From positions 218,697-282,696 of the forward strand of contig CAZPYM010000002.1 of NCBI GenBank assembly GCA_964590105.1: a DNA stretch of 64,000 nucleotides. Direction: 5' to 3'. The translations under genes and the position numbers were made by a program. The notes beneath the pieces were generated by a model. It saw only the letters and a program-made list of their open reading frames with translations. It did not search any database and was not told where the DNA came from. This DNA comes from an uncultured Gammaproteobacteria bacterium (GTDB lineage Bacteria; Patescibacteriota; Patescibacteriia; UBA11705; JABHMO01). Numbering within the stretch: position 1 is the first letter of the stretch; each line of letters opens with the position of its first letter. This document shows positions 17,306-39,479 of the stretch, piece by piece.

Positions 17306-17310
17306 ATTAT

Positions 17311-19224: not shown

Positions 19225-19304
19225 ACCTCCCTCCATAATTGAAACGGCCAGCGATTGGCGCCGACGCGCCAATCGCTGGCCACAGCCGTACTAAGGAGGT
19301 GACT

Positions 19305-19700
19305 ATGGCTGACTCATTGCAGGAGCAGTTGTTTCGTAAAGGTCTCGTGTCTGAGAGAAAATTCAAAGAGCATGAGGCCAGGACTACGCTTGCTACGGGA
19401 GAGCCAGGAGGCGTCTTGGTCGCGGATTTGAGTGAGCTTGATCGTTGTCAAACGGTCGGCGAGTTCAAAGAAGCGGCGCGGAAAGTTCTTGGTGTCAATT
19501 CTGGATTAGCGCAAGCTGTCCTTGATCGGGCAAACCATAAGTTTGCTGGTAGGGGGCAGGACAAGCGTAAGGCGCGCTGGTTTTTCTACGCCGTCCGTGA
19601 CGGACTTCGGGGGAAGTCGGCGGGCGAGCAACAGCGATTTCTGAAGCGAGCGTTTCGTCGATCCGGCGCGACGTTCGAGCCGCCAAAGGACTTTGCCTAG
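19305..19700 (+). CDS. hypothetical basic protein (131 aa)
   Basis: Strong SD ctaaggaggtgactATG; a terminator follows. Confidence 0.5.
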   Translation: MADSLQEQLFRKGLVSERKFKEHEARTTLATGEPGGVLVADLSELDRCQTVGEFKEAARKVLGVNSGLAQAVLDRANHKFAGRGQDKRKARWFFYAVRDGLRGKSAGEQQRFLKRAFRRSGATFEPPKDFA

Positions 19701-24551: not shown

Positions 24552-25886
24552 TTATGGCTGTGATTTCTGGATATTTTTAAATGGAATTAAGAATACTATA
24601 ATTGCAAATAATACTGCAGGAACAAATGCTATTTTATAGGCAAAAAATGAAAAAATGATTAGTATTATTGGCGCTCCTATCATTGAAATTAAGACCTGTT
24701 TTATATTAACTTTTTTTGAATATAAACTGAATAAAAGACATGGTGTTAAGGCGAGCATTAAGAATGAGGCAAAAAGAGCAAGATTAATTATGTCAGGAAA
24801 TATATAAGCAGTGAAAGCGGCAATGATTCCCAAGCCCAGTGTTGTAAGCCGAGCATTTCTCAAGGAAGAGAAAATTTTAAACTCTCTTGATATAATAGTT
24901 GAACCTCCTATTAATAAACTATCAATCGACGACAAAATAATTGATAGAATGCCCGCATAACCTAATCCAACTAAACCCACAGGAAGTAATTTGGGAATTA
25001 ATAAATACATTGCTTGATCTCTGTTTACATCACCAAGCATCGTTGCTGCGAATAGTCCTATAAACATCGTTAGTAAGCTAATCAGAAGCATAAAGGGAAT
25101 ACTATAATAAAGTGATTTTATTCCAATTTTTTCATTTTTTGCTGAAAATATTCTTTGCCATGTAGCCGAGTTCATTAAATAAACAAATCCTCCGATCAGT
25201 ATTGTACCTATAAAAAATCCGATGCCACCAAAAGCAAAAGGGTCAAAGTGTCCTTTTGGGAGATTTGCGATCAGGTCAAAGCCGTTGTTAAACACGCCAG
25301 AAACAAATAGCATAATTAGTAGGCCACCCATAAACCAAAATTGCACAAAGTCTGTTAAAAGGTCGGTTTTTAAACCACCAATAGCTGTGTATAGGATTAC
25401 AATTGCAATACTAATTATTAAAACAAGATTGTAATTAAGGCCGGTTAAAATACTGCCAAGTTGACTTATGGCAACTAAATTTATGGCTGTAAGCAGAAAT
25501 AAAATTGTGATTAGTAAAAATAAGATTGGATATTTGATTTTATTTCCAAATCTCCATTTGAAAATATCTACCAAAGTAAATCTATGTTCTTCGGGGATTG
25601 TGAATATTTTTTTAGCTACTAAAGCGAGTATTATCATGCCTATTACAGAAGCTACTATTGAAGAGATAGCAAACGAAATGCCAGTATCATATACGGCGGC
25701 AACAACACCTATCACGGATGCGGCGATGGTAATACTCGCTACATGTGAAAAAGTTAATAGCCACAAGCCCGAGGAACGTTTGTTTAACCAATAGCTTAAT
25801 ACTGATTTTTCCTTGATTGATTTGATAGCAATAAATACAAGGATCAGGAAGAATATTGATATTGCTACATAATCTAATAAGTGCAT
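24552..25886 (-). CDS. polytopic membrane transporter (about 12 TM; sodium:solute symporter-like)
   Basis: 444 aa, almost entirely hydrophobic helices; family assignment is tentative. Confidence 0.4.
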   Translation of the reverse strand: MHLLDYVAISIFFLILVFIAIKSIKEKSVLSYWLNKRSSGLWLLTFSHVASITIAASVIGVVAAVYDTGISFAISSIVASVIGMIILALVAKKIFTIPEEHRFTLVDIFKWRFGNKIKYPILFLLITILFLLTAINLVAISQLGSILTGLNYNLVLIISIAIVILYTAIGGLKTDLLTDFVQFWFMGGLLIMLFVSGVFNNGFDLIANLPKGHFDPFAFGGIGFFIGTILIGGFVYLMNSATWQRIFSAKNEKIGIKSLYYSIPFMLLISLLTMFIGLFAATMLGDVNRDQAMYLLIPKLLPVGLVGLGYAGILSIILSSIDSLLIGGSTIISREFKIFSSLRNARLTTLGLGIIAAFTAYIFPDIINLALFASFLMLALTPCLLFSLYSKKVNIKQVLISMIGAPIILIIFSFFAYKIAFVPAVLFAIIVFLIPFKNIQKSQP

Positions 25887-25943: not shown

Positions 25944-27059
25944 TCATGTGCTTTTATAAATTTCCAATGTTTGTTTGGCGCAATTTTCCCAGTTGAAACG
26001 CTTGGCGTTTTCTAGTCCTTTACTAATAATCTGGCTCTTCAAATTTTGGTCAAAAATAATTTTGTGTATTTGCTCGGCCATTTGTTCAGTGTCTTCCGGA
26101 TCAAAGAATAGGGCAGAGTCCCCGAGCACTTCCGGCATGGAGCTGGTATTGGTTGAGATAACCGGTGTTCCGCAAGCTTGCGCTTCAATGGCAATCAGGC
26201 CAAAACCTTCGATAAAAGAAGGAAGTACAAATAGGTCGCTATCATTGTATAATATTGGAAGCTCAGATTCTTGAACATATCCTGTTGCGATTATGTCATT
26301 TTTATATGGCGAATTGTTGATCTCGCGTCGCACATTTGTGTAATGCAGATCTTCGCGTCCGCCGAGCACCAGTTGATGCTCTATTTTATACTTTTTTTTA
26401 AGCAAATTAAACGCTCTGACCAGCCCCTCGATGTTTTTGTGGCTGCGCCAGACGCCTACATTAAATATATACGGTTTGGTAATGCCAAACTGGTTTTTTG
26501 TCTTATTAATTATACCACCATTTTCTATTATTTTAAAACGTTCGTCCACACCCTCGTATGTAACGCTGATTTTTGACGGGTCAACCTGAAAATGCTTGAT
26601 AATGCCGGACTTTGTACTCTCGGAAACAGCAATAATTTGGCTGGCTTTGCCCACAGTTGAACGAAATACGGCGCGGTATGCCCATTGACGCCAGCCGGAC
26701 GCGGCTTTGTGGCCCGGATAGAAAAAGGGCGTTAGGTCATGGATGGTGCAGACTGATTTTTTGCGGAATAAAACCGGAGAATTAAAGTGCGGATAATGAA
26801 TTAGGTCAAATTTGTGCTTTATTAGCTCAAAAACAAACCTGGTTTGCTCGGCGTAAGAATAATGAGCGCAATTGGTCAGAATTTTTTTAATGCGCTTGTT
26901 CGGCGGATTAAATTTGGAAAACTCCGGCTCGCGTAAAAACAAGATATATTCATTCTCCTGATCCAACTTGAAAAGTTCGTCAGTCAAGCGCTGAATATAT
27001 GTGCCGATTCCGCTGAATTGTGATGACCCGTACATTCGGCAATCAATTGCAATTATCAT
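25944..27059 (-). CDS. glycosyltransferase family 4
   Basis: GT4 C-terminal EGFGLIAIEAQACGTPVIST motif. Confidence 0.75.
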   Translation of the reverse strand: MIIAIDCRMYGSSQFSGIGTYIQRLTDELFKLDQENEYILFLREPEFSKFNPPNKRIKKILTNCAHYSYAEQTRFVFELIKHKFDLIHYPHFNSPVLFRKKSVCTIHDLTPFFYPGHKAASGWRQWAYRAVFRSTVGKASQIIAVSESTKSGIIKHFQVDPSKISVTYEGVDERFKIIENGGIINKTKNQFGITKPYIFNVGVWRSHKNIEGLVRAFNLLKKKYKIEHQLVLGGREDLHYTNVRREINNSPYKNDIIATGYVQESELPILYNDSDLFVLPSFIEGFGLIAIEAQACGTPVISTNTSSMPEVLGDSALFFDPEDTEQMAEQIHKIIFDQNLKSQIISKGLENAKRFNWENCAKQTLEIYKST

Positions 27060-27158
27060 ATTTTTATAAAGTTAGTGTCGTCTTGAGTCCTGAGCTTAGC
27101 CGAATGATTGAAAGGCGGGCATCAATGGCGATTTTCATATAAAGACGAATTTGTCTTT

Positions 27159-27899
27159 TTATCTTATACTATTCCAAACCAAATTCCAAATTGATTTCAT
27201 GGTTTGCGCGATGGCCTTGTCTTCAATAATCACTGCGGCATATGGTTTGCGGAAAGAGATTAAGGAAACTTTATTTTCGTAAATGTTTATTTCCGTTTCA
27301 AAATCAATGTCCGGCACCAGCCGTGTTTTGCGGAGCTGTTGTTGGTCCTTGTCTTTGATCAGCCGTCCCTTTGGCCCGTCTTTGGCTATGCAATAAAAAA
27401 AGCATTTGTTTTTCACGCGCGCCTCCGGCCCGGCCTGCCATAAAAAATCCTCGGGCAAAGTTTCAAACATTTTTTCATAATCTGTAAATCCGTATATTTT
27501 TCCGTCCGGAACAGAATAGTCGGCGTAAGCCGCGCGCAGGCCCTCGAGCCCTTGATAAAAGCGAACCTTGGGTTTTTTTGTTGGGCGATTGAAAATGCTT
27601 AAAATTTCTGGCAGGGCTTTTTGTACTTCATTTAGCCGTTCTTGCGCGCGCTTTAGCACAGTTTCCGGATTTTCCGGTGCCAGCAAAAGTTTTTTATTTT
27701 TTTTTATTTCGGTCAGCAGTCCGAGATTTTTCATTTCTTCCAAAAAATTATAAATACTGGTGCGTTTTACTTTTGATTTTTGCGCCAGTTCCTGAATCGT
27801 GGCAGAGCCCAACTCCAAGCAGGCTAAATACACTTCAGCTTGTCTTGGCTGAATGCCAAGTTTTGTTAGGGAATCGAGTAGGTATTTCATGTTTGTCAA
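27159..27899 (-). CDS. TrmB-family HTH transcriptional regulator (paralog 4), divergent from the radical-SAM operon.
   Basis: QPRQAEVYLACLELGSATIQELAQKSKVKRTSIYNFLEEMKNLGLL. Confidence 0.65.
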   Translation of the reverse strand: MTNMKYLLDSLTKLGIQPRQAEVYLACLELGSATIQELAQKSKVKRTSIYNFLEEMKNLGLLTEIKKNKKLLLAPENPETVLKRAQERLNEVQKALPEILSIFNRPTKKPKVRFYQGLEGLRAAYADYSVPDGKIYGFTDYEKMFETLPEDFLWQAGPEARVKNKCFFYCIAKDGPKGRLIKDKDQQQLRKTRLVPDIDFETEINIYENKVSLISFRKPYAAVIIEDKAIAQTMKSIWNLVWNSIR

Positions 27900-27920
27900 T
27901 TTTTGCTAAATATATTTCGC

Positions 27921-28018
27921 CCCACTTTAGTGGGATATGCAGGACCGCGTGCGTTTTAATTTACCCGAACATTTTGTTTCCACGTCCGTGTAGTCGTATT
28001 CGACTAAAGTCGGGTAAA
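27921..28018. promoter_or_regulatory. nested inverted repeats in the divergent TrmB/radical-SAM intergenic region (candidate operator)
   Basis: cccactttagtggg hairpin; tttacccgaac pairs with gtcgggtaaa about 40 nt away; cgactaaagtcg hairpin. Confidence 0.35.
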
Positions 28019-28147
28019 ATGATTTTAGTTAATTTTGTCTATGTTTTAGACACTATATCATGCAAAAAATAATCTGTCAAATTCTTGTAATTTTATTAAG
28101 CATTCGTCTATTGCTACTCTTCGTATAGTTTTTTTTAGTCCTTATTG

Positions 28148-28176
28148 TTGACAAGATATTTTTAACTTAATACAAT
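28148..28176 (+). promoter_or_regulatory. consensus sigma70 promoter: TTGACA, 17-nt spacer, TACAAT.
   Basis: ttgacaagatatttttaacttaatacaat; downstream SD aaggagggggcATG. Confidence 0.55.
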
Positions 28177-28226
28177 AAGATGTTTATGGAAAGTTCTTTG
28201 ACAGTTGCCTTTAATAAGGAGGGGGC

Positions 28227-29786
28227 ATGAACTATCTGCACGTGGAATTACCGAGTTTGCATTTGGTTTGGAAACGGGATGGGCAAACGGATGTTGTGTG
28301 TTCTGTGATTCGCACCAATTATCCGAAGCCGAGCCTGCTATTGGTGCCGGCAATTATGCGGACATCTGGCGTGGCGGAAGTTAGAGTAATTGATATGAAG
28401 ATTCGCGATCAAGACGTCATTGTTCCTTACTGTGAATTTAATTACGGTGAAGGAAAAATGGTGGCGTCCAGAATGGGAATGCCGTTTGACTCGATCCGGA
28501 GCCAGCTGGAATGGGCTGATATTCTTGGGCTGACCATCAATCCAAGTTCGTGGGCCAATCTCGCGGTTGATTTTGCCGGTTATGCCAAGTGCGTGAATCC
28601 GCAAATTAAGATAATTATTGGCGGTACGGATGCGACATTCAGGCCGGAATTTTATCTGCGCCACGAGCATTTTGAAAAGCGCAGACTGTTTGATTTCGTT
28701 GTAGTGGGAGAAGGAGAAGTCGCCGGGCCGGAACTTTTGCGGCGGCTGGAGTTCGGCCAGCAGGTGGATGAAATTTTTGGTGTAGCTTATTATTCCGACG
28801 GTAAAGTAATTATGAACGGAATAAATCGCAATGTTTGCCTTGACGATGAACCGCTACCGGCGATGGACTTGTTTGTTGATGACATGTCGCTCTGGACAAC
28901 ACCGATTGAGGGTTACGTCGGAATGGAAGTGCGGCCGCCGATCGCGCCGCTCTACATTACCCGCGGGTGTAATAATGCTTGCGAGTATTGTACGACGCCA
29001 CAGAAATACGGTCGGCTTCGGTTCAAGTCGTTGTCTCGGGTGGAAGAAGAGCTTAAGCATTTTAAAACGTTCGGCATTGGCACGATCAATATCTGGGATG
29101 ATTCTTTGAGCTCATTGGTCGGCCGTGGCGAACGGGATTTGTTGATTGGATACATCAGGTTGATCCGGCAATATGGATTTTCGTTTGAATACGCGCAGGG
29201 AATGGTGATCCGTGATTTATGGAATAAGGAGAAGAACGAGCCAGACTTTGCGTTGATCAAAGAGCTGTACGGACACGCAATTGTTGACGGCCAGTTTGTC
29301 GGCTGTTACGGACAATATACGCCGTTTGAATTTTTGCAGACGGAAAATCCTCATGATTTGAACAGCAAACTGATTCCCTTTGATAAAGAATTGCGCGTCT
29401 TGCAAGCGATTCTTGACCAAGGGGTAAGATATTTGAGCTATTCTTGTATATTGGGGCGGGCCGATGACAGCGCCGAGCAATTCCGGCTGGCGGAATCGCG
29501 CATGAAGCAAATTCAGGGCATTATTGAAGCGGCCGGGGCGCGAGGTCTGGCTACGCCGTACATTTATTCAATTTTTCCCGGAACTAGAATATGGTCACGG
29601 GAAATTGAACGATTGGATTATTCGATTGAAGAGTATCCGGAATTGTATCAGCTGAACGCGGCGCCGCATGGGACAACGCATTTGACGCCGGGTGAGCTGA
29701 TGCAAGCCAAGCTTGATTTGGAAAGGGAGTCCTTGGGCGAGGAAAGGTTTAAGTGTTGGATTAAAACAGGGCGATATCAATGGTAG
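28227..29786 (+). CDS. B12-binding (class B) radical SAM enzyme
   Basis: N-terminal cobalamin-binding-like domain and CxxxCxxC (RGCNNACEYC). Confidence 0.75.
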   Translation: MNYLHVELPSLHLVWKRDGQTDVVCSVIRTNYPKPSLLLVPAIMRTSGVAEVRVIDMKIRDQDVIVPYCEFNYGEGKMVASRMGMPFDSIRSQLEWADILGLTINPSSWANLAVDFAGYAKCVNPQIKIIIGGTDATFRPEFYLRHEHFEKRRLFDFVVVGEGEVAGPELLRRLEFGQQVDEIFGVAYYSDGKVIMNGINRNVCLDDEPLPAMDLFVDDMSLWTTPIEGYVGMEVRPPIAPLYITRGCNNACEYCTTPQKYGRLRFKSLSRVEEELKHFKTFGIGTINIWDDSLSSLVGRGERDLLIGYIRLIRQYGFSFEYAQGMVIRDLWNKEKNEPDFALIKELYGHAIVDGQFVGCYGQYTPFEFLQTENPHDLNSKLIPFDKELRVLQAILDQGVRYLSYSCILGRADDSAEQFRLAESRMKQIQGIIEAAGARGLATPYIYSIFPGTRIWSREIERLDYSIEEYPELYQLNAAPHGTTHLTPGELMQAKLDLERESLGEERFKCWIKTGRYQW

Positions 29787-29899
29787 TTTTTTTGTAAAAA
29801 ATCAGCCCAATTCAAGGAATTGGGCTTCTACTCGCGAAATTAAATTCTTGATTTTGCATGTGGAAGTTGTTCTTTGAAATATAAAGGAGGTGATTGACC

Positions 29900-30271
29900 A
29901 TGTGGTGGATCATTGTTTTGGTTTGTGTCTGTGCGGTGTTAATTACAACTGTAAGTTTGGTTGTGCATCATTATCGGTATTGTAAATTGTATGAAGTTGA
30001 TGCTGTTATTAAGCAATCCGGGGTAACTGGTGTTCCATGGCAGTTTGCTGATATTGACTATGAACGTCACACTGGGACTAAAGTTTTGGGACGCCGAGTA
30101 TTTACAATTATTGTTGAAACAGAATTTGGTGAGCGAGACTGGAATTATGTGGAATATATAAAAGATGGCGATGCAGAGAGACGAATACATTTACCGGCTA
30201 ATCGTTCGAAAACAAAATTGTTAACCACGCGTTGTGGTAAAAGGGCTTATTCTTTGGATTGGTTTGAATAA
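29900..30271 (+). CDS. small membrane-anchored protein (123 aa)
   Basis: SD aaaggaggtgattgaccATG; N-terminal TM WWIIVLVCVCAVLITTVSLVV. Confidence 0.5.
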   Translation: MWWIIVLVCVCAVLITTVSLVVHHYRYCKLYEVDAVIKQSGVTGVPWQFADIDYERHTGTKVLGRRVFTIIVETEFGERDWNYVEYIKDGDAERRIHLPANRSKTKLLTTRCGKRAYSLDWFE

Positions 30272-30283
30272 AAGGAGGACAAC

Positions 30284-31447
30284 ATGAAAGACCAATTTTT
30301 AGAATTAAAAGATGTTTTAGTTGAACCAGAACAAGGCCTGCGTATCGTCGGCCGGCATCTGATTCCGGCTGAACCAATGCCCGAGCGGCCATTGCCGGCT
30401 CTGCGGGAAGATTATCTTTCCGCGGTCGAAGCCGAAGCGGTAAAACAACACAACTTGCGCTGGGCAAATGGTTTGGAAGAAAAGCCAAAGTTGTTGTTGG
30501 CGTGGCTCATGTTGCCGACGCGTTGCAATCAGTGGTGCCGCGGCTGTTATGCCGGCAATGATAAGAAAAAAACAAACAGTATATTGCCACAGTTTTATTC
30601 GGAGGCAAAGCTGAAAGAAATGCTTGATTCTTTGCGGCGGCATGGAGCTCGGACGATCGGCTACGCCGGTCTTGGCGAACTTTTCACAATGCGCCGGCCG
30701 CATTTAGCTATAAATGCGCGGGAATACATTGAACGCATTATCGGAGCCGGATTCAATATGTTGATTTTCACCAATGGCACGCTTTTGTCGGTTGATGATA
30801 TCGAGTGGTTGGCCAAGCGCCCGATCAGTTTGATTTTTTCTTTGCGGGACATTGTGGAAAGCGAACATAACGGCATTGTCCGTTTTAACGGCTTTCGTAA
30901 AACCTTGCGAGCTTTAGAGCTGGCTTTGCGCGCCGGTCTGCACAAGGCTAATCGGATTGGCGTGGAAATCCCTGTGATTCATGGCAATATGGAGCGAGTA
31001 CTTAATGATTTTATCCCGGCCATGCGGCACTTGGGAATTATTCCTTACGCTGAACAATACATGCAGGTTTGCACTTCGTCGGAAGAAAAGAAAATGGGCT
31101 TGAGCTTTGCCGAGGCGCGCGAATTTTTCCGACGGGCGCAGGCGATTGAAAGGCGATTCGGCTATGTTCACGCGCCGTGTTTTGCGCAAAGGATGGTGTC
31201 TCAAGACAAGTGTATTCGGCCGGTTTTTTCTGTAACGATTTATCCGAATGGCGCGGTTACGCCCTGCCCGGGAAATTCGGAAAAACTTGGTAATATTTAT
31301 GACGTGTCACTTGATGAAATTTTGAATTCAGACAAGTATAGAGAGTGGGTCAAGCGATTTGAATTGTGCGCTTGTTCAGTGTTTTACACTGAGAGCGATA
31401 AAGAAATTCCACCCAACATGCCGCAATTTCTGGAGGAGTTCAAATGA
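30284..31447 (+). CDS. radical SAM enzyme with a C-terminal SPASM/twitch-like Cys-rich domain
   Basis: CNQWCRGC (CxxxCxxC) and C-terminal CFAQ...CIRP...CPGN...CAC cysteines. SD aaaggaggacaacATG. Confidence 0.75.
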   Translation: MKDQFLELKDVLVEPEQGLRIVGRHLIPAEPMPERPLPALREDYLSAVEAEAVKQHNLRWANGLEEKPKLLLAWLMLPTRCNQWCRGCYAGNDKKKTNSILPQFYSEAKLKEMLDSLRRHGARTIGYAGLGELFTMRRPHLAINAREYIERIIGAGFNMLIFTNGTLLSVDDIEWLAKRPISLIFSLRDIVESEHNGIVRFNGFRKTLRALELALRAGLHKANRIGVEIPVIHGNMERVLNDFIPAMRHLGIIPYAEQYMQVCTSSEEKKMGLSFAEAREFFRRAQAIERRFGYVHAPCFAQRMVSQDKCIRPVFSVTIYPNGAVTPCPGNSEKLGNIYDVSLDEILNSDKYREWVKRFELCACSVFYTESDKEIPPNMPQFLEEFK

Positions 31448-32577
31448 AAACAATTCACGACGTTCCAATTGTTTTTCCGGATAAGTTTCCTGCTGATTTC
31501 GACAATCGAATTCAGCACTGGGGATTTTTCACCCGCGAAGAAGTTGAACGCGATCGCGGTCGACTTCTGATGCTGGATTTTGACTTTGGCGGCTATTGTT
31601 CACTGAACTGTCCGGATTGCTATCGTAAACACAATGTGATTGACGAAGCTTTGCCCGGAGAGTTGACTTACAAACAACAGCTGGCGGTCATTGACGAAGC
31701 AATCAAACTTGGATTGCGAAGCATAAAGATCTGCGGCAAAGGCGAGCCAACAGAAGACACGCGTTTTTTGCAGTTCGTGCGCGATTTGAGCGATCGAGGA
31801 GTCGGTGCCGCAGTTTTCACTGCCGGGCAAGTACTCGGCCATGATGAGAAAGCGCGACAGGTTAATCGCAAATATGGCGTTAAGAATGCAAAGCACCTTT
31901 GCTCTGAACTGGCCAAACTGAAAGTCAGTTTTATGCTGAAGTTTCAGTCATTTTATTCGGAGATTCAGGATCGGCGAGTTGGGAAAAATGGGCATACTGA
32001 AATCCGTGACCGGGCGTTGTTGAATTTGGTCGGCGCTGGTTTTGCCGATAGTTTTCCCACGCGCCTCGCCACTTGTTCCAATCCCATAGTTCAGTCAACG
32101 GCGCAGGAAGTTTTTGACATCTATGCTTGGTCAAGGCGGCGTAATATCTATCCGATCACCGCCGCCCTGATGGTCAGCGGCAAGCAGATTGATCAGCGAT
32201 TTTTGCTGGAGCATGATATTTCCGATGAGGAAAAGATCGCGCTCTGGACTCGGATTTATCGTTGGAATATTCGGCATGGTTTGCAAACGCTGGAACAGAT
32301 TGAAGCTGGAGGAGTTTCAGTCTTGCCCGGCATGCATCCGTGCAATCAGATCGCTGCTGGGCTTTATGTTTCTTTGACCGGCAATGTGATCATGTGTCCA
32401 GGCGCGACCGAATCGCTAGGCAATGTCAAAGATGAATCCCTGTCCGTTATTTGGTGGCGGTATATTGAAGCGAGTCGTAACGTCGGTTGTTTCAACTGCT
32501 GGTGTCCGCCGAAAGATGGAGTTACAATACCTGCGAATTTGTACAGACGAGTTTTGAAAAATTTGCAAAGCATATAA
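31444..32577 (+). CDS. radical SAM/SPASM enzyme, paralog of the upstream gene (ATGA overlap)
   Basis: CSLNCPDC motif; C-terminal CNQ...CPG...CFNCWC cysteines. Confidence 0.75.
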   Translation: MKTIHDVPIVFPDKFPADFDNRIQHWGFFTREEVERDRGRLLMLDFDFGGYCSLNCPDCYRKHNVIDEALPGELTYKQQLAVIDEAIKLGLRSIKICGKGEPTEDTRFLQFVRDLSDRGVGAAVFTAGQVLGHDEKARQVNRKYGVKNAKHLCSELAKLKVSFMLKFQSFYSEIQDRRVGKNGHTEIRDRALLNLVGAGFADSFPTRLATCSNPIVQSTAQEVFDIYAWSRRRNIYPITAALMVSGKQIDQRFLLEHDISDEEKIALWTRIYRWNIRHGLQTLEQIEAGGVSVLPGMHPCNQIAAGLYVSLTGNVIMCPGATESLGNVKDESLSVIWWRYIEASRNVGCFNCWCPPKDGVTIPANLYRRVLKNLQSI

Positions 32578-32629
32578 CAAAAATCCCCGTCTCGATAATA
32601 TTCGAGCGGGGTTTTTTTTATGTTTTTTA

Positions 32630-32893
32630 TTACCCTGTCGCGCTTTTCAGTTGCTCTCGCGAGTTGTCTTGATCTCCGTTCGGAAGCGCATTCAAAAAGA
32701 ACATTTCAACTCGACCGTGGAACAATTTCTCAAGCATGGGGATGAGATTGTCCGTGCTGTTTCGTTCGTCGTAAAGTATACAGCAATCATTTTCGTCCGC
32801 TACTAAGTACCAGCCATCGATCCAGTGGTCCAGCCATTTGTTGGTCGGAACATGCAAGAGTCTGTGTGATCTAGATTCTCCCTGATTAGTCAT
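32630..32893 (-). CDS. small hypothetical protein (87 aa)
   Basis: SD aagggggaaaaaaATG; start taken at the internal Met. Confidence 0.4.
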   Translation of the reverse strand: MTNQGESRSHRLLHVPTNKWLDHWIDGWYLVADENDCCILYDERNSTDNLIPMLEKLFHGRVEMFFLNALPNGDQDNSREQLKSATG

Positions 32894-32992
32894 TTTTTTC
32901 CCCCTTGGAAAGACAAACATGTCAAGGCGGTATATTAGCAATATTATAAAGATGTGTCAAGGCATGAAAAAAGCAAGCAGTGATTGCTTGCT

Positions 32993-33724
32993 TTAGATGT
33001 TTTTTCTTTTTATGTCTGCCGGACAATTTTGATGCCCCAAAACTCTTTTTTTAAACTCCGGATGATTCCAGACAAAGATTGATTTGGTCATTCCCCGCAA
33101 GACTTCCGGCGGCAGGCCGGGAAAAACAAGCAGGTTTCGAACAAGCAGAAGAGATGTGAATGTGTGCCTGGACAGAATTTTCGCGGTCTCGTGTTTTATT
33201 CTTAGCCCGATTAAATACTTGAGACAACGGCCTTCGGTTCTGATAATAAAATCCGCGCATTGTTCTGCAGAGCTGTTGTCGAATTTTTCTCGTAGAAATA
33301 ATCTGGCGAGCTTAGTCGTTTTTTCAGTTGATTCGCGTCCTTCTGAAAGATTATTCAGCAGGAAGAGTGACAGCGTGCTGAAACATCTCCGCAGAGCAAC
33401 TTCAGTGCTGAAGCTATTTTTGAAAAGCCCGCTTTTTACGGCGGTATCGCTGACAAAAGCAGGAAAACCGGTTAGATATTCCAGACCTGCTCCGGAATGA
33501 TGATATTTTGCAACCAATTGAGCGTGCCGCGGGCCAAAAGAGGAATTCTGAATTGCGGCTCTGATTACTTCAGGATTGGGATCCAGGCAGATGGCGCACA
33601 GTTCATCGCCGCCTGATGTCTGCGCCAGATGAATTTTTACGCTGAGCGACAAACCGCGAATGGTCTCCTCATAGACCCTTCGGTGTTCAGCCCCTCTTAT
33701 TAAATGTTTTTCGTTTTCGGCCAT
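32993..33724 (-). CDS. hypothetical protein (243 aa)
   Basis: SD aaggagggagcATG; no family recognised. Confidence 0.45.
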   Translation of the reverse strand: MAENEKHLIRGAEHRRVYEETIRGLSLSVKIHLAQTSGGDELCAICLDPNPEVIRAAIQNSSFGPRHAQLVAKYHHSGAGLEYLTGFPAFVSDTAVKSGLFKNSFSTEVALRRCFSTLSLFLLNNLSEGRESTEKTTKLARLFLREKFDNSSAEQCADFIIRTEGRCLKYLIGLRIKHETAKILSRHTFTSLLLVRNLLVFPGLPPEVLRGMTKSIFVWNHPEFKKRVLGHQNCPADIKRKNI

Positions 33725-33852
33725 GCTCCCTCCTTGCAATGACAAAGCTTTCAGTTCAAAACATTATCAATATAATGCACTTGTGTCAAGGTAGTGTTTT
33801 AATTTATAAGAAAAAAAACTGTCCTTCGGTGTGAGGAAAGACAGATTTGGCG

Positions 33853-34419
33853 CTATACAATTCGCTGTGCTAAGAAAAGATCGAGCTGGGCAAAGGAGGC
33901 TACGTAGCCTTTTTTCTGATAAATTCCTATGCGATCGATTTCCGCTTGAACTTGATCATCGGTAAATGACTGGCCGGTCGGATTAAGCAATGAAACCAGC
34001 GAGATTTCCCGATGACAGTTGGCCTTTTGCAGGGTTTGCAAAAAGGTCAGAAAGCAACGCGGTAGGTGATACGCGGCGGTTGTCAGAATGACGTGTCCGA
34101 CCTGCTGATGCTTGAGCAACAAATCACGCGCCCATTCCCTTTGCCATAAAGTATGTTTTGCCCAGCCGCCGCAGAGAATGTCAGGAGAATCAGTTCGAAC
34201 ATATTGGACAACATCTTCCCGCGAATATAGCGGGTCATCCCTTGTCCCGGCAACCCAGAGATGCTTTGCCTTCCGCGGCCACAATTTTGTTCCTTGTTCA
34301 ATTCGCCAATTCTGATATTGGCCGGGCATGATTAGTATGGCGCTTTGTTCAGGCGAAAATTTTTCCGCAAAGGGAATGCTGAGAATTTCAATCATTCGGC
34401 GACAGATTTCAAGGGACAT
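33853..34419 (-). CDS. DUF218 (YdcF/ElyC/SanA-like) family protein
   Basis: ILIMPGQ, HLWVAGT and VILTTAAYHLPR blocks. Confidence 0.55.
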   Translation of the reverse strand: MSLEICRRMIEILSIPFAEKFSPEQSAILIMPGQYQNWRIEQGTKLWPRKAKHLWVAGTRDDPLYSREDVVQYVRTDSPDILCGGWAKHTLWQREWARDLLLKHQQVGHVILTTAAYHLPRCFLTFLQTLQKANCHREISLVSLLNPTGQSFTDDQVQAEIDRIGIYQKKGYVASFAQLDLFLAQRIV

Positions 34420-34516
34420 TATTTCCCTCCAACCTATGATTTACTGCAATTACGGCGATTGGTTATTATAATGAATAAAAATTAAAATGTCAAGTGTGTG
34501 TTTTTGAAAAATTTTG

Positions 34517-34552
34517 AAACAAAAAACTGCAACTCGTGTAAGTTGCAGTAGG
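34517..34552 (-). terminator. hairpin terminator; copy 1 of a duplicated 36-nt element
   Basis: aaacaaaaaactgcaactcgtgtaagttgcagtagg. On the minus strand this is a hairpin followed by a T-run. Confidence 0.6.
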
Positions 34553-34581
34553 ATTGTTGTCTGTTTCCTTTATTGCGTTTA

Positions 34582-36342
34582 CTACCAGGGCAACGCGTCG
34601 AGAACGGTCCTTGTAATAAACATACTATCTGGAGAGAGATAGTTCGCTATCCCCCAAACTATCCAAGGCAAGACGGCCCATTTCCATGCATTTTGCCAAC
34701 GCACTTGTACATAACCCCCCAATAGAACTAGAAGAGGGTCCCCGATTAAACGATTGGACCAATGTTCGTGCCCAACTTTCCAGGCCGACACTCCTTTTCC
34801 TAAAATTCCCAATTCAAGAAGGTATTCCATGAGCTCCCATCCGTATGCAATGGCGAGCGTGATACTGAGTAGCTTCATTACTGAAAGCTTTGGGCAGAAG
34901 CGCTTCAGGGATGCAAGTACGACTACGCCCCAGAGAAAGTGCTCAATAGACCACATGTCGAGCATCACCGCTTCTCTGTCGATGCCATACTTTTCTGGCA
35001 CAACAAGGCAGATAGCGAGTAGCCCGATCAGGGTATCATGGAGAATGATCATGGGTTTTGAGATACTTGTCGGATCCCACTTTACAAATTTGTAAACCAA
35101 GAATACCAGAAATGCCAGCAGCTCATTCGCCTTATTTGTAAGAAAGATGAAAAAGCCGGAGAGCGTGGATATGGACAAGGCGATCCACTTGGCGGGTGAA
35201 GTTCCCAGCGTGACTGGCAAAGTGTTTTTGTGTCCTGTGTCAATGGTCACATCTTCAATGTCCTTGATAATCTCTCGCCCAAGGATCAAAGTGAAGAACA
35301 CACTGTACCAAGTCCAGATATACGCATCGTTCCTCTGGAAAAATACTGAACCGCACAGGACAGGGCTTGCGCCACATCCAGCCACGATCAGATTGTTAAT
35401 AACAACCAATTTCTGGAGGTATGAGTAGGCAAGGCCAAGCACTAGAATGCCAAAGCAGAAAAGTGCCACGACAGTATTTAACGTTGCAAGTATACTGATC
35501 GTTGTCAAGGTGAGCCCTGTGAGTCTGACCCAATATGACCAGAATGCCTTAGGATGATCATACGCCAACCGTTTTCCCTTTTGCAAGTCGTGGCTTCGAT
35601 CATACCAATCATTGAAAGTCATGATGGACATGTGTAGCAGTGAGCAGGACAGCGCTGTAAACAAAGCGACCATCCAGTCTATGTGATTCTCCCCATACAT
35701 TACAAATCCGGATAAGGCGAGGAGAAATGTGAAGATAGTCCCCCGGATCCTTCCGGTTTTCACGAACTCAACGAGTGGCGGCGCCTGCGATTCGAGCGGG
35801 TTTTTATGACCGAGGATTACGTCTACCAAAACCGCGCTGAGAAACACTAGATATCCAGCCACAATCAAATAGCTCGGCGTCTTTTCAATATTTCCAGACA
35901 AAACATGCAAAAGACAGATACTTGAAACGGCCACGTTCACTCCAAAATACACAAGGTGAACTTTACCGCCAAGACTGACCTTGCCAGGCGCTGGAAAGCT
36001 CCAATTGGGTTTATACTTCTGATGTGTCCCGACTCTGTACCACGACCAGATCCCAAATATGGAAAGGAAAAGAAAGATTAACCACTCTCCAAGTTCGATC
36101 CGTCCGTACCAGGCCAGGTGTGCAAAGCCTGAGACGACCAGCCCGAGTCCAACCATGTCGCCCCAAGTTTGACAATGGGCGTCTTGCCAATGATTGAATT
36201 TTTGGTTTGTGCCGTGGATGGCACTACCGCGCGCAGGGATTTTCCCTTTTTTTAGTTCCCATTGCTGCACAAGATATTGCAATAGGCAAGCGATCCCGTT
36301 CAAGAGGAGGCTTGCCAGGACGAGAGTCCAGTTCGGTGTCAT
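34582..36342 (-). CDS. UbiA-family prenyltransferase fused to additional N- and C-terminal polytopic membrane domains (586 aa)
   Basis: NDWYDRSHD (NDxxDxxxD) and a second Asp-rich motif KDIEDVTIDTGHKNTLP. Confidence 0.65.
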   Translation of the reverse strand: MTPNWTLVLASLLLNGIACLLQYLVQQWELKKGKIPARGSAIHGTNQKFNHWQDAHCQTWGDMVGLGLVVSGFAHLAWYGRIELGEWLIFLFLSIFGIWSWYRVGTHQKYKPNWSFPAPGKVSLGGKVHLVYFGVNVAVSSICLLHVLSGNIEKTPSYLIVAGYLVFLSAVLVDVILGHKNPLESQAPPLVEFVKTGRIRGTIFTFLLALSGFVMYGENHIDWMVALFTALSCSLLHMSIMTFNDWYDRSHDLQKGKRLAYDHPKAFWSYWVRLTGLTLTTISILATLNTVVALFCFGILVLGLAYSYLQKLVVINNLIVAGCGASPVLCGSVFFQRNDAYIWTWYSVFFTLILGREIIKDIEDVTIDTGHKNTLPVTLGTSPAKWIALSISTLSGFFIFLTNKANELLAFLVFLVYKFVKWDPTSISKPMIILHDTLIGLLAICLVVPEKYGIDREAVMLDMWSIEHFLWGVVVLASLKRFCPKLSVMKLLSITLAIAYGWELMEYLLELGILGKGVSAWKVGHEHWSNRLIGDPLLVLLGGYVQVRWQNAWKWAVLPWIVWGIANYLSPDSMFITRTVLDALPW

Positions 36343-36421
36343 GTGACGCCTCCTTTTGATTGTAGTTGATTGTCGAAGTCCAAAATTATTTTATAATTTT
36401 AGAAGGACATTGTCAAAGTGC

Positions 36422-36457
36422 AAACAAAAAACTGCAACTCGTGTGAGTTGCAGTAGG
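36422..36457 (-). terminator. hairpin terminator; copy 2 of the duplicated 36-nt element (35/36 identical)
   Basis: aaacaaaaaactgcaactcgtgtgagttgcagtagg. Confidence 0.55.
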
Positions 36458-36629
36458 TGTAGGAAAGAAGGGGCGACTGACACAAGCTTGTGTCTTTTTT
36501 CTGCCTGCGGACTTTGGATACCGCGCGATACGCCGAGGCGCAAAGGGTCGTGCCGAGGGCTTTCTTAATCCCCACGGCCTCCCTATCGCTTAACAGATCT
36601 TGGACACATTGACTTGTGCCAGCCACCAG

Positions 36630-36703
36630 TGGAGCCAGAAGGAATCGAACCTTCGCCTTCCGCTACGCAAGAACGGCGCTCTGCCGGTCTGAGCTATGGC
36701 CCC
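36630..36703 (-). tRNA. tRNA-Ala (anticodon TGC)
   Basis: Cloverleaf GGGGCCATAGCTCAG...CTTGCGT...GGTTCGATTCC...TGGCTCCA with the G3:U70 identity pair; CCA is not encoded. Confidence 0.85.
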
Positions 36704-36970
36704 AGTTGAGAAAAAGAATTTTGGTAAAGCCCGCATATCTCCCGTTTAGCAGGATCAAGGAGAATATGCGGTTTTGCCGGCGAGGACTTTGCATCTGGTA
36801 ATGAACGGGTTCAACTGCCATGCGTCGGAAGTGCAGTCGGGAAGTAGTTCTTTCCGGCCCCGCGATAGCGCTTCCGTGGCACGCACAGTCACCGCCGCCA
36901 TTGCTGGTCGTATTGCCGGAGTTAGCGAAGCTCCGGTAATCAACCCTTCAGCCTCCTGCAAGGCCAATCG

Positions 36971-37043
36971 TGCGCCCAAAGGGATTCGAACCCTTGACCC
37001 TCGGATTAAAAGTCCGATGCTCTACCAACTGAGCTACGGGCGC
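36971..37043 (-). tRNA. tRNA-Lys (anticodon TTT)
   Basis: GCGCCCGTAGCTCAGTTGGTAGAGCATCGGACTTTTAATCCGAGGGTCAAGGGTTCGAATCCCTTTGGGCGCA. Confidence 0.9.
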
Positions 37044-37086
37044 GCTTGTCAACAAAGGATAAGTCTCGATGAACGAACAAGAATAC

Positions 37087-37115
37087 AATATAGCATTGCG
37101 GTAATAATTTGTCAA
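37087..37115 (-). promoter_or_regulatory. consensus promoter (TTGACA, 17-nt spacer, TATATT) driving the tRNA-Lys/tRNA-Ala transcript.
   Basis: Minus-strand ttgacaaattattaccgcaatgctatatt, about 37 nt upstream of the tRNA-Lys 5' end. Confidence 0.55.
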
Positions 37116-37122
37116 GGTAAGA

Positions 37123-38283
37123 TTATTTGGAAGCAATTGATTCCAAAACATTCAACACCTCCCGCGCAGACTGATACCAAATGAATTGTTTGGCTTTTTC
37201 CAGGCCCTTGGTTTTGTAATAGTCTGCTAATTGCGGATCAATCATCTGCTCCATGGCGCGGGCAAGATCATTCACGTTTGTCGGATCAATCAGAAGCGCG
37301 GCATCGGCGCAGATTTCTGACATGGAAGAATTATTTGAAGTGATGACCGGACAGCCGGAAGCCATAGCTTCGAGTGGCGGGAAGCCGAATCCTTCATAAT
37401 AAGAAGGGTAAACAAACATTGAAGCCAGATTGTACAAATAGCGTTTGTCGCTGTCAGGAACAAACTGCGTGCAGATTATTTCGTCTTGTTTTGAATTGTC
37501 CTGAGTTTGTTTTAGCTTTTTTTCTATGGCAGCGGTTTTCCAACCCTTTTTTCCGGCAATGACCAGCGAATATCCGGGATTATTTTTATTAAAAATGTTA
37601 AATGCCGACACGAGCGATTGAATGTTTTTTCGCGGCTCAATCGTACCGAGAAAAAGAATAAATTTGTCTGGCAGTTTGTATTTATTTTTTATTGTTTTTA
37701 ATTTAATGTCATTTTCCGTCAGTACTTTGTAGTTTGGCGAAATGCCGGGATAAACAACGCTGATCTTTGAGCCTGGGATATTATATTTGCCGATGAGGTC
37801 CTGGCTGGTATTTTTAGAAACGGTAATGATTTCTTTTGCTTCTTGAAAAAGTTTTTTCGGCCGGAGAAACCAGTGCCACAGTCGCCGCTTTAGCGAAAGA
37901 AATTCAGGAAAAAATTCAAAACTCAAATCATGCGCCGTAATTATGTATGGACATTTGGTATGTAAAAAACTTAGATTCGGGAAAAAGAACAGGTCGATCT
38001 TTGGTGTTTTATGTTTTTTTTTAATTGCTAAATCAAGGCAAGGATGCTTGGCCAGCAAAGCGAAGTTGAGCAGTTTATTGGGCATTTTAAACGGGCAGTA
38101 CTGAACATTATCTTTGGGAAATTTCGGAATATATTTAGAAACATTCTGACGGGAATTATAAAAAAGATAGTACTGGTTGGCGCTATCGATTTCAAATAAA
38201 TGTTTGAGTAAATGAAATGTGTATTCGCCGACGCCGGTCAGTTCGCGCTCCATTAGGCAGCGAATGTCGATTGCTATGTTCAT
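37123..38283 (-). CDS. glycosyltransferase family 4
   Basis: EGFGFPPLEAMASGCPVITSN motif. Confidence 0.75.
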   Translation of the reverse strand: MNIAIDIRCLMERELTGVGEYTFHLLKHLFEIDSANQYYLFYNSRQNVSKYIPKFPKDNVQYCPFKMPNKLLNFALLAKHPCLDLAIKKKHKTPKIDLFFFPNLSFLHTKCPYIITAHDLSFEFFPEFLSLKRRLWHWFLRPKKLFQEAKEIITVSKNTSQDLIGKYNIPGSKISVVYPGISPNYKVLTENDIKLKTIKNKYKLPDKFILFLGTIEPRKNIQSLVSAFNIFNKNNPGYSLVIAGKKGWKTAAIEKKLKQTQDNSKQDEIICTQFVPDSDKRYLYNLASMFVYPSYYEGFGFPPLEAMASGCPVITSNNSSMSEICADAALLIDPTNVNDLARAMEQMIDPQLADYYKTKGLEKAKQFIWYQSAREVLNVLESIASK

Positions 38284-38387
38284 AGGTTACGAATTATGAA
38301 TTGGTTACTAATCTACATATAGCTACGAATATATATTTGGCGAATGCCGGATTAGTAATAATTCATAGATTCGTAGCAGATTGGTAA

Positions 38388-39479
38388 TTAGTAACCTTGC
38401 AATTTTGTCACAATAAACTCCTTAATTTTCCGTTTGAAAATTTCCACATCAAACTGTAGAGCGTGTTCCCTGATTTCTTGGGGTTTGTAATCTTGGCACT
38501 TGAATCTTAAAACCTTGTCTGCCAGATCTTCCCATGTTTGTTCTTCAAAAAGCGTGCCGGTTTTTCCTTCAATAACAGTTTCCAGCGCGCCGCCGGCTCT
38601 GAAAGCTATGACCGGCCGTCCGCTGGCCATGGCTTCGACTGCGGTAATGCCAAAGTCTTCAAGTTGCGGATTTAAATAAGCCAAACAATGGCGATATAGT
38701 TCTGACTTTTTTTTCTCGGAAACTTTGCCGAGGAATTGAATGTTATTTTTGGCATTTTGCTGTAAATGTTTTTTTTGTGGGCCGTCCCCGAAAATAATAA
38801 GCGGCATATTCAGCCGGTTAAAAGCCGTCACCAGCAAATCAAATCTTTTGTAGCCGACCAGCCGGCCACCGGCCAGGAAATAGTTGCCGATATTATTTGA
38901 AATGCAAAACTTGGCAGTGTCAACCGGCGGATGGATTACTTCACTGTCGCGATTATAATATTTTTTTATGCGCTTTTGCACTTCTCGCGAATTGGCAATA
39001 AAATGATCAACTCGCTCAGCGGCGATTTTGTCCCATTGGCGAAGTCTAGTCAGCATTATTGGCAGCATTTTTTTAATTAAAAAATTCTGGTTCAAATCTT
39101 CCAGATAGTTGTGCGTGCTGGTCCAGAGGAATCGGGGAGGCGTGTGGCAATAGCAGATATGGGTTGAATTTTGACCGGGGATTATTCCCTTGGAAAAAAT
39201 TGAAGAGCTGGAGAGAATTAATTTAAAATCATTCAGTCGGTGATGTTCGGTTGCGGCCGGCATTAGATTCAAATACCACTGATATTTGGAAACGCCGAAG
39301 GGTAGATTTTGCAAAAAAGAAGTTTGAATGTTTTTGTCTTTCCAGTCCGGCTCCACATTACGTTCATCATAAACCAAAGTAAAAACAGGACTTCCTGGAA
39401 AAATTTCCGTGAAAGCTTTGGCAACTTTTTCCGCTCCGCCATCCTGGGCGAGGTGGTCGTGGACTAATGCTACATTCAT
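38388..39479 (-). CDS. glycosyltransferase family 4
   Basis: EDFGITAVEAMASGRPVIAF motif. Start moved to the ATG (MNVALVHDHL) rather than the ORF-track TTG. Confidence 0.75.
   Translation of the reverse strand: MNVALVHDHLAQDGGAEKVAKAFTEIFPGSPVFTLVYDERNVEPDWKDKNIQTSFLQNLPFGVSKYQWYLNLMPAATEHHRLNDFKLILSSSSIFSKGIIPGQNSTHICYCHTPPRFLWTSTHNYLEDLNQNFLIKKMLPIMLTRLRQWDKIAAERVDHFIANSREVQKRIKKYYNRDSEVIHPPVDTAKFCISNNIGNYFLAGGRLVGYKRFDLLVTAFNRLNMPLIIFGDGPQKKHLQQNAKNNIQFLGKVSEKKKSELYRHCLAYLNPQLEDFGITAVEAMASGRPVIAFRAGGALETVIEGKTGTLFEEQTWEDLADKVLRFKCQDYKPQEIREHALQFDVEIFKRKIKEFIVTKLQGY

Follow-up and report, generated by a model that had tools for sequence, protein, structure and literature searches.

Recognisable mobile elements are missing from many hotspots of horizontal gene transfer (HGT), as reported by Oliveira et al. 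(PMC5635113). Minimal mobile elements (MMEs) are described, in the passage of PMC3082526 that cites Saunders and Snyder (2002), as sites where strains carry different whole-gene cassettes between two conserved genes, the cassettes being incorporated by homologous recombination. Here we describe a locus of similar form in a 64-kb stretch of contig CAZPYM010000002.1, hereafter called the window, in which an initial annotation had seen a GC-rich, horizontally acquired genomic island abutting a tRNA-Lys/tRNA-Ala operon. The interval carries three radical SAM (rSAM) genes, several small genes, a cassette encoding a UbiA-family prenyltransferase fusion and two tRNA genes, and it adjoins the gene of a TrmB-family helix-turn-helix (HTH) regulator (Table 1). 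We found that the region is not a classic tRNA-integrated island but a mosaic hotspot. More fully, and with moderate confidence, we interpret the interval as an integrase-free hotspot of gene turnover in a cell-envelope glycan locus, a mosaic of modules with different histories. The rSAM operon and TrmB would be an old, self-contained unit that was inherited together and lost repeatedly, the UbiA cassette a unit recently exchanged with the lineage of a related genome, and the genes between them lineage-specific fill, next to a tRNA array whose composition shifts from genome to genome.

Variable contents between conserved flanks

The nearest named proteins and contigs come from metagenome-assembled genomes (MAGs) of Candidatus Kuenenbacteria and Falkowbacteria, and the host is a Kuenenbacteria/Falkowbacteria-like bacterium of the candidate phyla radiation (CPR; Patescibacteria). 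The rest of the window holds typical CPR housekeeping genes (IF-2, leucyl-tRNA synthetase or LeuRS, TrpRS, RNase J, POR, UvrA and RNase P RNA) together with several TrmB paralogs. The interval is set in an envelope-glycan neighbourhood made up of a DUF11 surface protein, DUF4012, three GT4 glycosyltransferases and a Bac_transf phosphoglycosyl transferase; its left flank is a TrmB/GT4 pair at 25944-27899 followed by DUF4012, and its right flank is another GT4 gene.

Representative genomes were scanned with the flanking TrmB protein and ten loci were recovered. Besides contigs of identical strains, four loci share the flanks of the window, namely L007/L011 (Kuenenbacteria bin.190), L012, L013 and L016, and all keep the syntenic order GT4...TrmB-GT4-DUF4012 around different whole-gene contents. 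The window has the three rSAM genes, the middle genes and UbiA, with tRNAs Lys and Ala. L007/L011 carries the three rSAM genes and UbiA without the genes for the DUF218-like, 250-aa and 125-aa proteins, and its tRNAs are Lys, Glu, Thr and Arg. L016 has the three rSAM genes, unrelated open reading frames (ORFs) instead of UbiA, and tRNAs Lys and Gln. The site in L012 is about 2 kb long and holds a Phd-like antitoxin with a small partner and a coiled-coil ORF, and that in L013 consists of about 4 kb of small hypothetical genes; neither has tRNAs. The interval is therefore variable among relatives with the same flanks, as an island would be, but the tRNAs proposed as its anchor belong to the variable content.

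Like the MMEs of Neisseria and other integrase-free hotspots, the locus lacks mobility genes and holds unrelated whole-gene cassettes enclosed by conserved flanks, and each of its minus-strand cassettes has its own promoter and terminator. It differs in that our comparison spans MAGs of different CPR species or genera rather than strains of one transformable species, in that the rSAM part looks ancestral, lost rather than gained, and in that a terminator hairpin present in two copies encloses the UbiA cassette, whose flanks differ between the two genomes that share it.

For measures of composition the proposed island was taken as 28100-36500. Its GC content had been put near or above 50%, which is overstated: it is 0.461 (46.1%) compared with 0.421 (42.1%) in the remainder of the window, values of 0.49-0.51 are reached in scattered 500-nt windows only, and a lone peak of 0.57 belongs to the tRNA region. 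Even so, no other 8.4-kb window has a higher GC. In tetranucleotide usage, too, the stretch deviates more than any other part of the window (its correlation with the rest is r=0.89-0.91, where the mean is 0.944 and sd 0.017), but the expected shift in codon usage did not appear, as the distance of island genes to the pooled other genes is no different (p=0.41). Per-gene GC at third codon positions (GC3) rises modestly, from 0.445 to 0.484 (Mann-Whitney p=0.02). Several genes outside the island have equal or higher GC, including those for POR (0.485), an ABC transporter (0.474), RNase J (0.467) and a CHAP protein (0.517). The annotation was right that strong Shine-Dalgarno (SD) sites are frequent inside and rare outside: a strong GGAGG-type site precedes six of the eight island genes and three of the 32 other genes of the window (Fisher p=5e-4), and this contrast is the strongest signal of the region.

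Three further observations concern the flanks and the relatives. A gene of the sodium:solute symporter family at 24552-25886 (-), between GT4 and DUF4012, has low GC (0.33; GC3 0.27) and no counterpart at this position in L007/L011, L010, L012, L013 or L016, and so is a second, low-GC indel near the region. Four TrmB-family regulators lie in the 64 kb (8713-9486, 16517-17305, 17281-18054 and 27159-27899), a marked expansion for a small genome, and several TrmB paralogs are found in related loci too. The MAG records of L013, L016, L017 and L018 are titled 'uncultured Gammaproteobacteria bacterium', yet their CPR-type syntenic genes are 55-76% identical to those of the window, and the labels look wrong.

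Table 1. Features of the interval and its borders, in window coordinates
Feature	Position	Strand	Basis or remark
TrmB-family HTH regulator	27159-27899	-	Pfam TrmB, E=4e-13; outside the proposed island
Divergent promoter region	27900-28226		Consensus scan and reading of the sequence; putative function
Class-B-type (B12-binding-domain) rSAM enzyme, uncharacterised family	28227-29786	+	Pfam B12-binding and Radical_SAM above cut-off
125-aa ORF	29894-30271	+	N-terminal transmembrane helix and SD; no family match
rSAM/SPASM enzyme 1	30284-31447	+	Pfam SPASM 38.8 (cut-off 21.5), Radical_SAM 36.7 (cut-off 29.5)
rSAM/SPASM-like enzyme 2	31444-32577	+	Radical_SAM 25.9 (cut-off 29.5), SPASM 19.3 (cut-off 21.5), both just below
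Small conserved ORF, 87-103 aa by start choice	32630-32941	-	No family match
250-aa protein, conserved domain of unknown function	32993-33745	-	No Pfam model
DUF218-like protein	33853-34419	-	Pfam PF02698 26.3 bits (cut-off 27.6); no NCBIfam match
UbiA cassette	34517-36457	-	Hairpin terminator, promoter 36416-36388, SD, gene 36342-34582, hairpin terminator
UbiA-family prenyltransferase fusion, 586 aa, integral membrane	34582-36342	-	Pfam UbiA
GC-rich structured 3' trailer of the tRNA operon, ~170 nt	36458-36628	-	Minimum free energy -90.5 kcal/mol, z=-6.8, folded with the terminator
tRNA-Ala(UGC)	36629-36703	-	ARAGORN; Rfam tRNA, 61.2 bits
GC-rich inter-tRNA spacer, 266 nt	36704-36969	-	Fold z=-2.1 only; unique among the fetched loci
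tRNA-Lys(UUU)	36970-37043	-	ARAGORN; Rfam tRNA
GT4 glycosyltransferase, conserved right flank	37123-38283	-	Pfam; orthologs 51-62% identical at the syntenic position in L007, L012 and L013

The TrmB regulator and the radical SAM operon

The left edge proposed for the island, at 28.1 kb, is the predicted divergent promoter region between TrmB and the first rSAM gene, since the rSAM operon and TrmB form one unit. Consensus matches predict a promoter for trmB at 28080-28052 (-) and one for the operon at 28148-28176 (+), and the SD AAGGAGGGGGC stands upstream of the ATG at 28227. The same divergent, adjacent arrangement, with TrmB a few hundred bases upstream of the B12-binding rSAM gene (B12-rSAM), was found in 13 CPR loci in unrelated contexts, among them DNA polymerase I, RuvA, S20, Mur ligase and Band_7, and a second rSAM gene of about 300-340 aa usually lies 3' of it. 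Archaeal homologs of B12-rSAM have a divergent double-HTH regulator of the AsnC type instead of TrmB. The distances between TrmB proteins correlate with those between their B12-rSAM partners (Mantel r=0.50, p=0.001), and we therefore read the two proteins as co-evolving. From this conserved pairing, TrmB appears to be functionally part of the rSAM operon.

In a neighbour-joining tree of TrmB the members adjacent to rSAM genes branch deeply, with L013 and rSAM-bearing L016 as sisters and L012 beside the window. Judging from this tree, L012 and L013 most likely kept the regulator and lost or replaced the operon, which would have been swapped for the unrelated small genes found there. Loss is preferred because the operon would otherwise have had to insert repeatedly beside this regulator, each time in the same orientation, which is much less likely.

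The raised GC and strong SD sites of the operon, which had been taken as marks of import, recur with the B12-rSAM family across hosts of 30-49% GC. In the 13 loci the GC of B12-rSAM ranges from 0.355 to 0.533 and tracks that of the host with a mean offset of about +0.02, and in 10 of them the adjacent TrmB gene is poorer in GC; the offset of +5.6 points in the window is typical of several hosts (L026, L027, L029 and L031). An SD precedes the alignment-placed start of B12-rSAM in 18 of 27 locus entries, several of which are duplicates of one assembly. On other ORFs of the same CPR loci the frequency is about 10%, with partner rSAM genes and UbiA over-represented among the ORFs that have one. 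In Parcubacteria, an anti-SD motif was reported for only 48% of the 16S genes (PMC9297842). We take the extra GC and the SD sites of the operon to be family traits and not marks of recent import. The rSAM operon, UbiA and a small number of other genes, a minority that is SD-led and richer in GC, could conceivably be a separately translated set in otherwise SD-less genomes. Further members of this minority may be two genes elsewhere in the window that have a strong SD, one at 7656-8120 (-) encoding 154 aa with no family and one at 55804-57633 (+) encoding an ABC transporter (raised GC3, 0.556).

The first enzyme of the operon combines a CxxxCxxC motif with an N-terminal domain of the B12-binding type, as class B radical SAM enzymes do. 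Both of its Pfam scores exceed the cut-offs (PF02310, 36.9 and 32.1; PF04055, 35.0 and 29.5), and the three cysteines (C248, C252 and C255) are invariant in the family alignment. About 45 full-length homologs are 41-64% identical to it, after which similarity falls abruptly to the level of generic rSAM proteins; their named sources are Kuenenbacteria, other Patescibacteria, an 'archaeon' MAG and a Bacteroidia MAG. All NCBIfam equivalog scores lie 10-fold under their cut-offs, and sequence matches to solved structures gave nothing useful for the four enzymes of the interval. The AlphaFold2 (AF2) model of B12-rSAM has a pLDDT of 92, and its nearest folds are AprD4, MgmA, OxsB, TsrM and TokK. With these class B enzymes and CysS it shares an N-terminal Rossmann-like B12-binding domain and a CxxxCxxC barrel (Foldseek E=1e-17 to 1e-14). 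It is 11-17% identical to the solved structures, has an extra beta-rich segment at its N-terminus, and, unlike them, is usually accompanied by a second rSAM enzyme and by an HTH regulator encoded divergently. AprD4, the top structural neighbour, is annotated as a diol dehydratase acting on an aminoglycoside sugar and not as a methylase, so the fold of the model alone does not settle the chemistry of B12-rSAM.

The second enzyme, rSAM/SPASM enzyme 1, shares 35% identity (E=5e-81) with the rSAM protein encoded together with the B12-rSAM homolog in the Bacteroidia locus. The start of the third overlaps the preceding stop by 4 nt, and its orthologs in L011 and L016 are 70-73% identical. The 125-aa ORF within the operon is not conserved, being absent in L007 and replaced by an unrelated 118-aa ORF with a transmembrane (TM) segment at the same place in L016. 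In the Bacteroidia MAG (L022, 2064-8728) the homologs of B12-rSAM and rSAM/SPASM enzyme 1 lie within a LIV-type ABC importer operon that comprises two ATPases, a periplasmic binding protein and two permeases, plus a 345-aa membrane protein; this context hints that the rSAM enzymes may act on an imported small molecule. In L007, and in the same way in L011, codon 16 of the B12-rSAM ortholog (17806-17808) is an in-frame TAG in place of a lysine codon, after the nearly invariant Trp15, and the gene caller restarts at Met63 to give 457 aa. The TAG may reflect either an assembly error or a gene on its way to becoming a pseudogene, and it is consistent with ongoing decay.

The UbiA cassette

The UbiA gene forms a monocistronic promoter-SD-gene-terminator unit framed by a 36-nt direct repeat (34517-34552 and 36422-36457, 97% identical). 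Each copy of the repeat is a hairpin with a 10-bp stem, CTGCAACTCGTGTRAGTTGCAG, followed by a T-run in the manner of an intrinsic terminator; one copy is predicted to terminate the tRNA operon and the other to terminate UbiA. From 34519 to 36459 the DNA is 88.9% identical to that of L007 over 1945 nt, compared with 66-78% in all other syntenic blocks, and the ends of this block coincide with the hairpin repeats. At fourfold-degenerate sites the identity to L007 is 0.746 for UbiA and 0.21-0.51 in seven neighbouring genes (two further comparisons, GT4_b and B12rSAM, were left out because stop codons dropped in the alignment had corrupted them). The UbiA promoter and leader are near-identical in the two genomes, whereas other intergenic DNA cannot be aligned. 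Related hairpins stand at both ends of the cassette in L007, where it starts right after tRNA-Arg. The UbiA cassette is thus a discrete, hairpin-bounded unit that was recently exchanged by lateral transfer between this lineage and that of L007. Horizontal acquisition, claimed for the island as a whole, has direct evidence in these 1.9 kb, not in the form of a classic element targeting a tRNA gene; the rSAM operon looks ancestral.

A rival reading is that there was no lateral transfer at all, and that vertical inheritance, gene-specific constraints on composition (from conserved enzymes or the level of expression, for example) and purifying selection account for the similarity of UbiA as well as for the rest. 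The lack of a distinct per-gene codon usage is consistent with it, as are the dependence of B12-rSAM GC on host GC, the family-wide SD and the identity of the rSAM proteins to L007, which at 61-73% lies inside the range of the flanks (59-84%). Selection on the protein cannot, however, yield the excess of identity at fourfold sites, nor would it keep the non-coding promoter and 5' leader of UbiA nearly the same amid unalignable intergenic DNA. In L007, moreover, the GC of UbiA is 0.487 against 0.389 for the rest of the locus. We consider the absence of any transfer improbable. Across four hosts UbiA has a GC of 0.48-0.50 with surrounding DNA of 0.38-0.47, and in L008 and L009 it is present without rSAM genes.

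The cassette landed, it appears, just downstream of the tRNA operon in both lineages. We infer that recombination took place at the hairpin and T-run without an integrase encoded by the element, and it might, for instance, have been a Campbell-type integration of a circular or transformed fragment. As the cassette is bounded by the duplicated hairpin, the exchange would not have used homology of flanking genes, and the flanks of UbiA differ between the two genomes; the only sign of homologous incorporation after DNA uptake is the indirect one of sharp identity boundaries at the hairpins. The hairpin does not correspond to an integron cassette site either. An attC site is an imperfect inverted repeat of at least 55 nt with R''/L''/L'/R' boxes, accompanied by intI, and what bounds UbiA is a terminator-like 24-nt stem-loop with a T-run, with no integrase found. 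It is conceivable, though rather unlikely in our estimate, that the UbiA unit exemplifies an undescribed kind of integrase-free mobile cassette in CPR bacteria that inserts at terminators downstream of tRNA operons. Such a cassette would depend for its movement on an HUH/RAYT-like enzyme that recognises the hairpin and is encoded elsewhere or, following the uptake of DNA, on recombination templated by the hairpin.

The protein encoded by the cassette belongs to the UbiA superfamily, with 78.3 bits to PF01040 (gathering cut-off 34.2) and both Asp-rich motifs. These motifs, NDxxDRxxD (N244-D245-x2-D248-R249-x2-D252) and DxxDxxxD (D361-x2-D364-x3-D368), are invariant in eight sequences. None of the subfamilies UbiA, MenA, CtaB, DGGGPS and DPPR synthase fits, the best NCBIfam score being 55.6 bits against 269, and no sequence match was found in the PDB. 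The core fold resembles archaeal UbiA (4tq3, 4od5), DGGGP synthase (6m31, 7bpu) and a membrane PRTase (8j8j), with core TM-scores, normalised by target length, of 0.58-0.68 in an AF2 model whose pLDDT is only 63. Unlike characterised UbiA enzymes, the fusion adds conserved TM domains to the core, of about 195-200 N-terminal and about 170 C-terminal residues, which have their own invariant polar motifs and many invariant polar, acidic and aromatic residues, among them E467, H468, E503, E506 and E510 near the C-terminus. YfiM domains linked to UbiA are mentioned in the Lipocone paper. No family could be assigned to these end domains, for which a permissive Pfam search gave only a Pyr4-like terpene cyclase (E=0.37), and an assignment of their fold from the AF2 model was dropped as the model is too weak there. 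The fusion is rare, with seven homologs among 5.8 billion clusters.

Function, tRNA array and significance

As a mechanism for the locus, TrmB would sense a small ligand and control the rSAM enzymes, which would modify a sugar-type or other small-molecule intermediate, and the UbiA fusion would make or use a polyprenyl-linked membrane intermediate. The products of both could then feed the surrounding envelope pathway of glycosyltransferases and a phosphoglycosyl transferase. That small-molecule modification by a TrmB-controlled pair or trio of rSAM enzymes and separate polyprenyl transfer both serve the envelope-glycan genes is a tentative proposal drawn from neighbourhood and fold.

The gene content of the interval is as the initial annotation had listed it (radical SAM genes, the UbiA fusion and hypotheticals), with the match to DUF218 (SanA/YdcF-like) just under the Pfam cut-off. 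The genes between the operon and UbiA are single-gene units, two of which have recognisable consensus promoters or hairpin terminators. The small conserved ORF is 50% identical (E=6e-24) to an 86-aa ORF directly after UbiA in L007. The domain of the 250-aa protein has 240 representative clusters at E<=1e-3 and stands mostly at the C-terminus of proteins of 300-900 aa; nine of ten longer homologs have no Pfam domain N-terminal to it and one has a methyltransferase. The DUF218-like gene has a predicted perfect-consensus promoter at 34493-34465 and a predicted terminator at 33844-33819, and only two non-self homologs of its product were found (42-45% identity).

All of these genes might instead form a single biosynthetic cluster, in which the rSAM, DUF218-like, 250-aa and UbiA proteins act in one pathway, to a modified isoprenoid lipid, a lipid-linked glycan or a ribosomally synthesised and post-translationally modified peptide (RiPP), and move together. 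The SD-led genes are indeed physically clustered, both the window and L007 have UbiA together with the rSAM genes, one DUF218-like homolog has a B12-rSAM gene on one side and a PseC-PseB sugar-modification fusion on the other, and the fold of B12-rSAM is like that of the sugar diol dehydratase AprD4. Against this, the rSAM genes occur without UbiA in L016 and in 10 further CPR loci with TrmB beside B12-rSAM, UbiA occurs without them in L008 and L009, and the DUF218-like and 250-aa genes are missing from both L007 and L016. The parts are also separate units on opposite strands with their own promoters and terminators. A RiPP pathway has no precursor peptide or exporter to point to here, as no small ORF in the operon is conserved and Pfam found no protease or transporter in the interval. 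We regard a single cluster as unlikely.

The two tRNA genes do have a promoter of their own, as had been claimed; it is predicted at 37115-37087, upstream of tRNA-Lys, and is near-consensus (TTGACA-17-TATATT). On this array the classic island reading depends, by which the whole ~9 kb was acquired once through integration into a tRNA 3' end, with an integrase since lost or encoded beyond the window. Like tRNA-associated genomic and pathogenicity islands, the region shows tRNA adjacency, being on the 3' side of tRNA-Ala, a composition atypical in part, with the most deviant GC and tetranucleotides and abundant SD sites but no distinct codon usage, and presence/absence polymorphism, being missing from L012 and L013 despite kept flanks. 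The reading fails because there is no integrase, no repeat of a tRNA 3' end, and the tRNAs themselves are variable. The absence of an integrase, already remarked in the initial annotation, was borne out: integrase and transposase families gave no Pfam match among 41 ORFs of at least 150 aa and two shorter island ORFs, and the eight island proteins gave no integrase-type match in NCBIfam or PHROGs. The direct repeat expected of an island is lacking, as the 21-nt 3' ends of tRNA-Ala and tRNA-Lys match only themselves in the window at up to three mismatches, and a general repeat scan of 27000-38500 found no tRNA 3'-end repeat; no tandem repeats were found in the island. Only tRNA-Lys is common to the three island-bearing genomes, L007 and L016 having differing tRNA sets, and the empty sites of L012 and L013 have no tRNA at all, so that the tRNAs are variable cargo. 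The modules, moreover, are of different ages: their unequal divergence from L007 (61-73% against 91% amino acid identity) already contradicts a single event, and the rSAM operon is tied to TrmB beyond the proposed boundary. An island acquired in one step is very unlikely. An origin from a phage or plasmid was also rejected, as UbiA and B12-rSAM gave no tblastn match in 50,697 phage records, UbiA had no relatives in IMG/VR and the island proteins had no match in PHROGs.

Hardly any room is left for an anti-phage defence island with viperin-like rSAM enzymes, for although L012 has a toxin-antitoxin-like pair at the hotspot, the flanking GT4s match Pfam 'GT4-conflict' and rSAM/SPASM enzyme 1 weakly matches pVip (E=8.6e-9, 33 bits), that similarity is at the level of generic rSAM proteins (NCBIfam viperin 30 bits, cut-off 180) in a protein that carries a SPASM domain, PADLOC gave no other match, and a dedicated TrmB with conservation across CPR bacteria and archaea is like a metabolic operon.

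Several points weigh against the mosaic of an old rSAM unit and a recently exchanged UbiA cassette that we favour. The region is the top outlier of the window in GC and tetranucleotides, and an older import of the operon is possible. The window contains no 16S rRNA gene, hence no anti-SD of the host to read. The choice between loss and gain of the operon rests on an unbootstrapped neighbour-joining tree of one 246-aa protein and on parsimony, and five more TrmB orthologs without the operon (L014, L015 and L017-L019) mean that several losses are needed. The recombination mechanism of UbiA comes from two genomes only, and gene conversion, by homogenising a pair of ordinary terminators, could have produced the 36-nt repeat. 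The GC3 of UbiA is 0.54-0.60 even between copies that are 55-58% identical, for which transfer alone is no explanation. The link to envelope glycans, lastly, rests on neighbourhood and on a weak structural resemblance to AprD4.

Downstream of the tRNAs, the GC-rich trailer of the operon could be an unannotated structured RNA co-transcribed with them, judging by its predicted fold, which is long and very stable. It has no similar sequence in any fetched locus, and Rfam searches of the trailer and the inter-tRNA spacer returned only the tRNAs and chance matches. A 136-aa ORF in a public gene call (36774-37184, +; seen in L004) overlaps both tRNAs on the opposite strand and is almost certainly spurious.

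Elsewhere in the window, a 217-aa ORF at 15544-16197 (-), between LeuRS and two TrmB paralogs, has a GC of 0.573 and no family match. Within it a 42-nt tandem repeat (15785-16057; about 5.5-6.5 copies, 73-76% match) encodes about eight 'CGPAGL(A/V)GGEQKI(M/I)' units, for which a repeat-peptide reading of the RiPP-precursor-like kind is possible. A GC-rich, unannotated 122-aa ORF at 18115-18483 (-) has two copies of 'LGCFGGGPGC(R/K)xI(T/S)DG'. LeuRS (12579-15449, +) has a NUDIX insertion at residues 420-512 (Pfam E=7e-11), between its editing domain and the rest of the catalytic core. Two other GC-rich ORFs are those at 10778-12217 (+; 0.517), with a C-terminal CHAP peptidoglycan-hydrolase domain, and at 19239-19700 (+; 0.565), with no family match. 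A 959-aa ORF without a Pfam match (51148-54027, +) overlaps a TPP-enzyme ORF (POR beta-like; 53762-54949, +) by 266 nt, and one start assignment of this pair is probably wrong.

A mosaic hotspot is a known kind of thing, and the interesting parts are the gene families and the boundaries of the cassette. None of the leads that follow from them overturns current understanding. One is a unit of a regulator and B12-rSAM common to CPR bacteria, DPANN-like archaea and one Bacteroidia genome, and another is a rare three-domain UbiA membrane enzyme that has recently spread between CPR lineages. For the calling of islands in CPR genomes the locus is a caution, as contrasts in GC and SD may be stable traits of gene families and not marks of foreign DNA. 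The UbiA cassette itself offers a clean, dated case of integrase-free exchange in organisms whose mechanisms of gene flow are poorly known.

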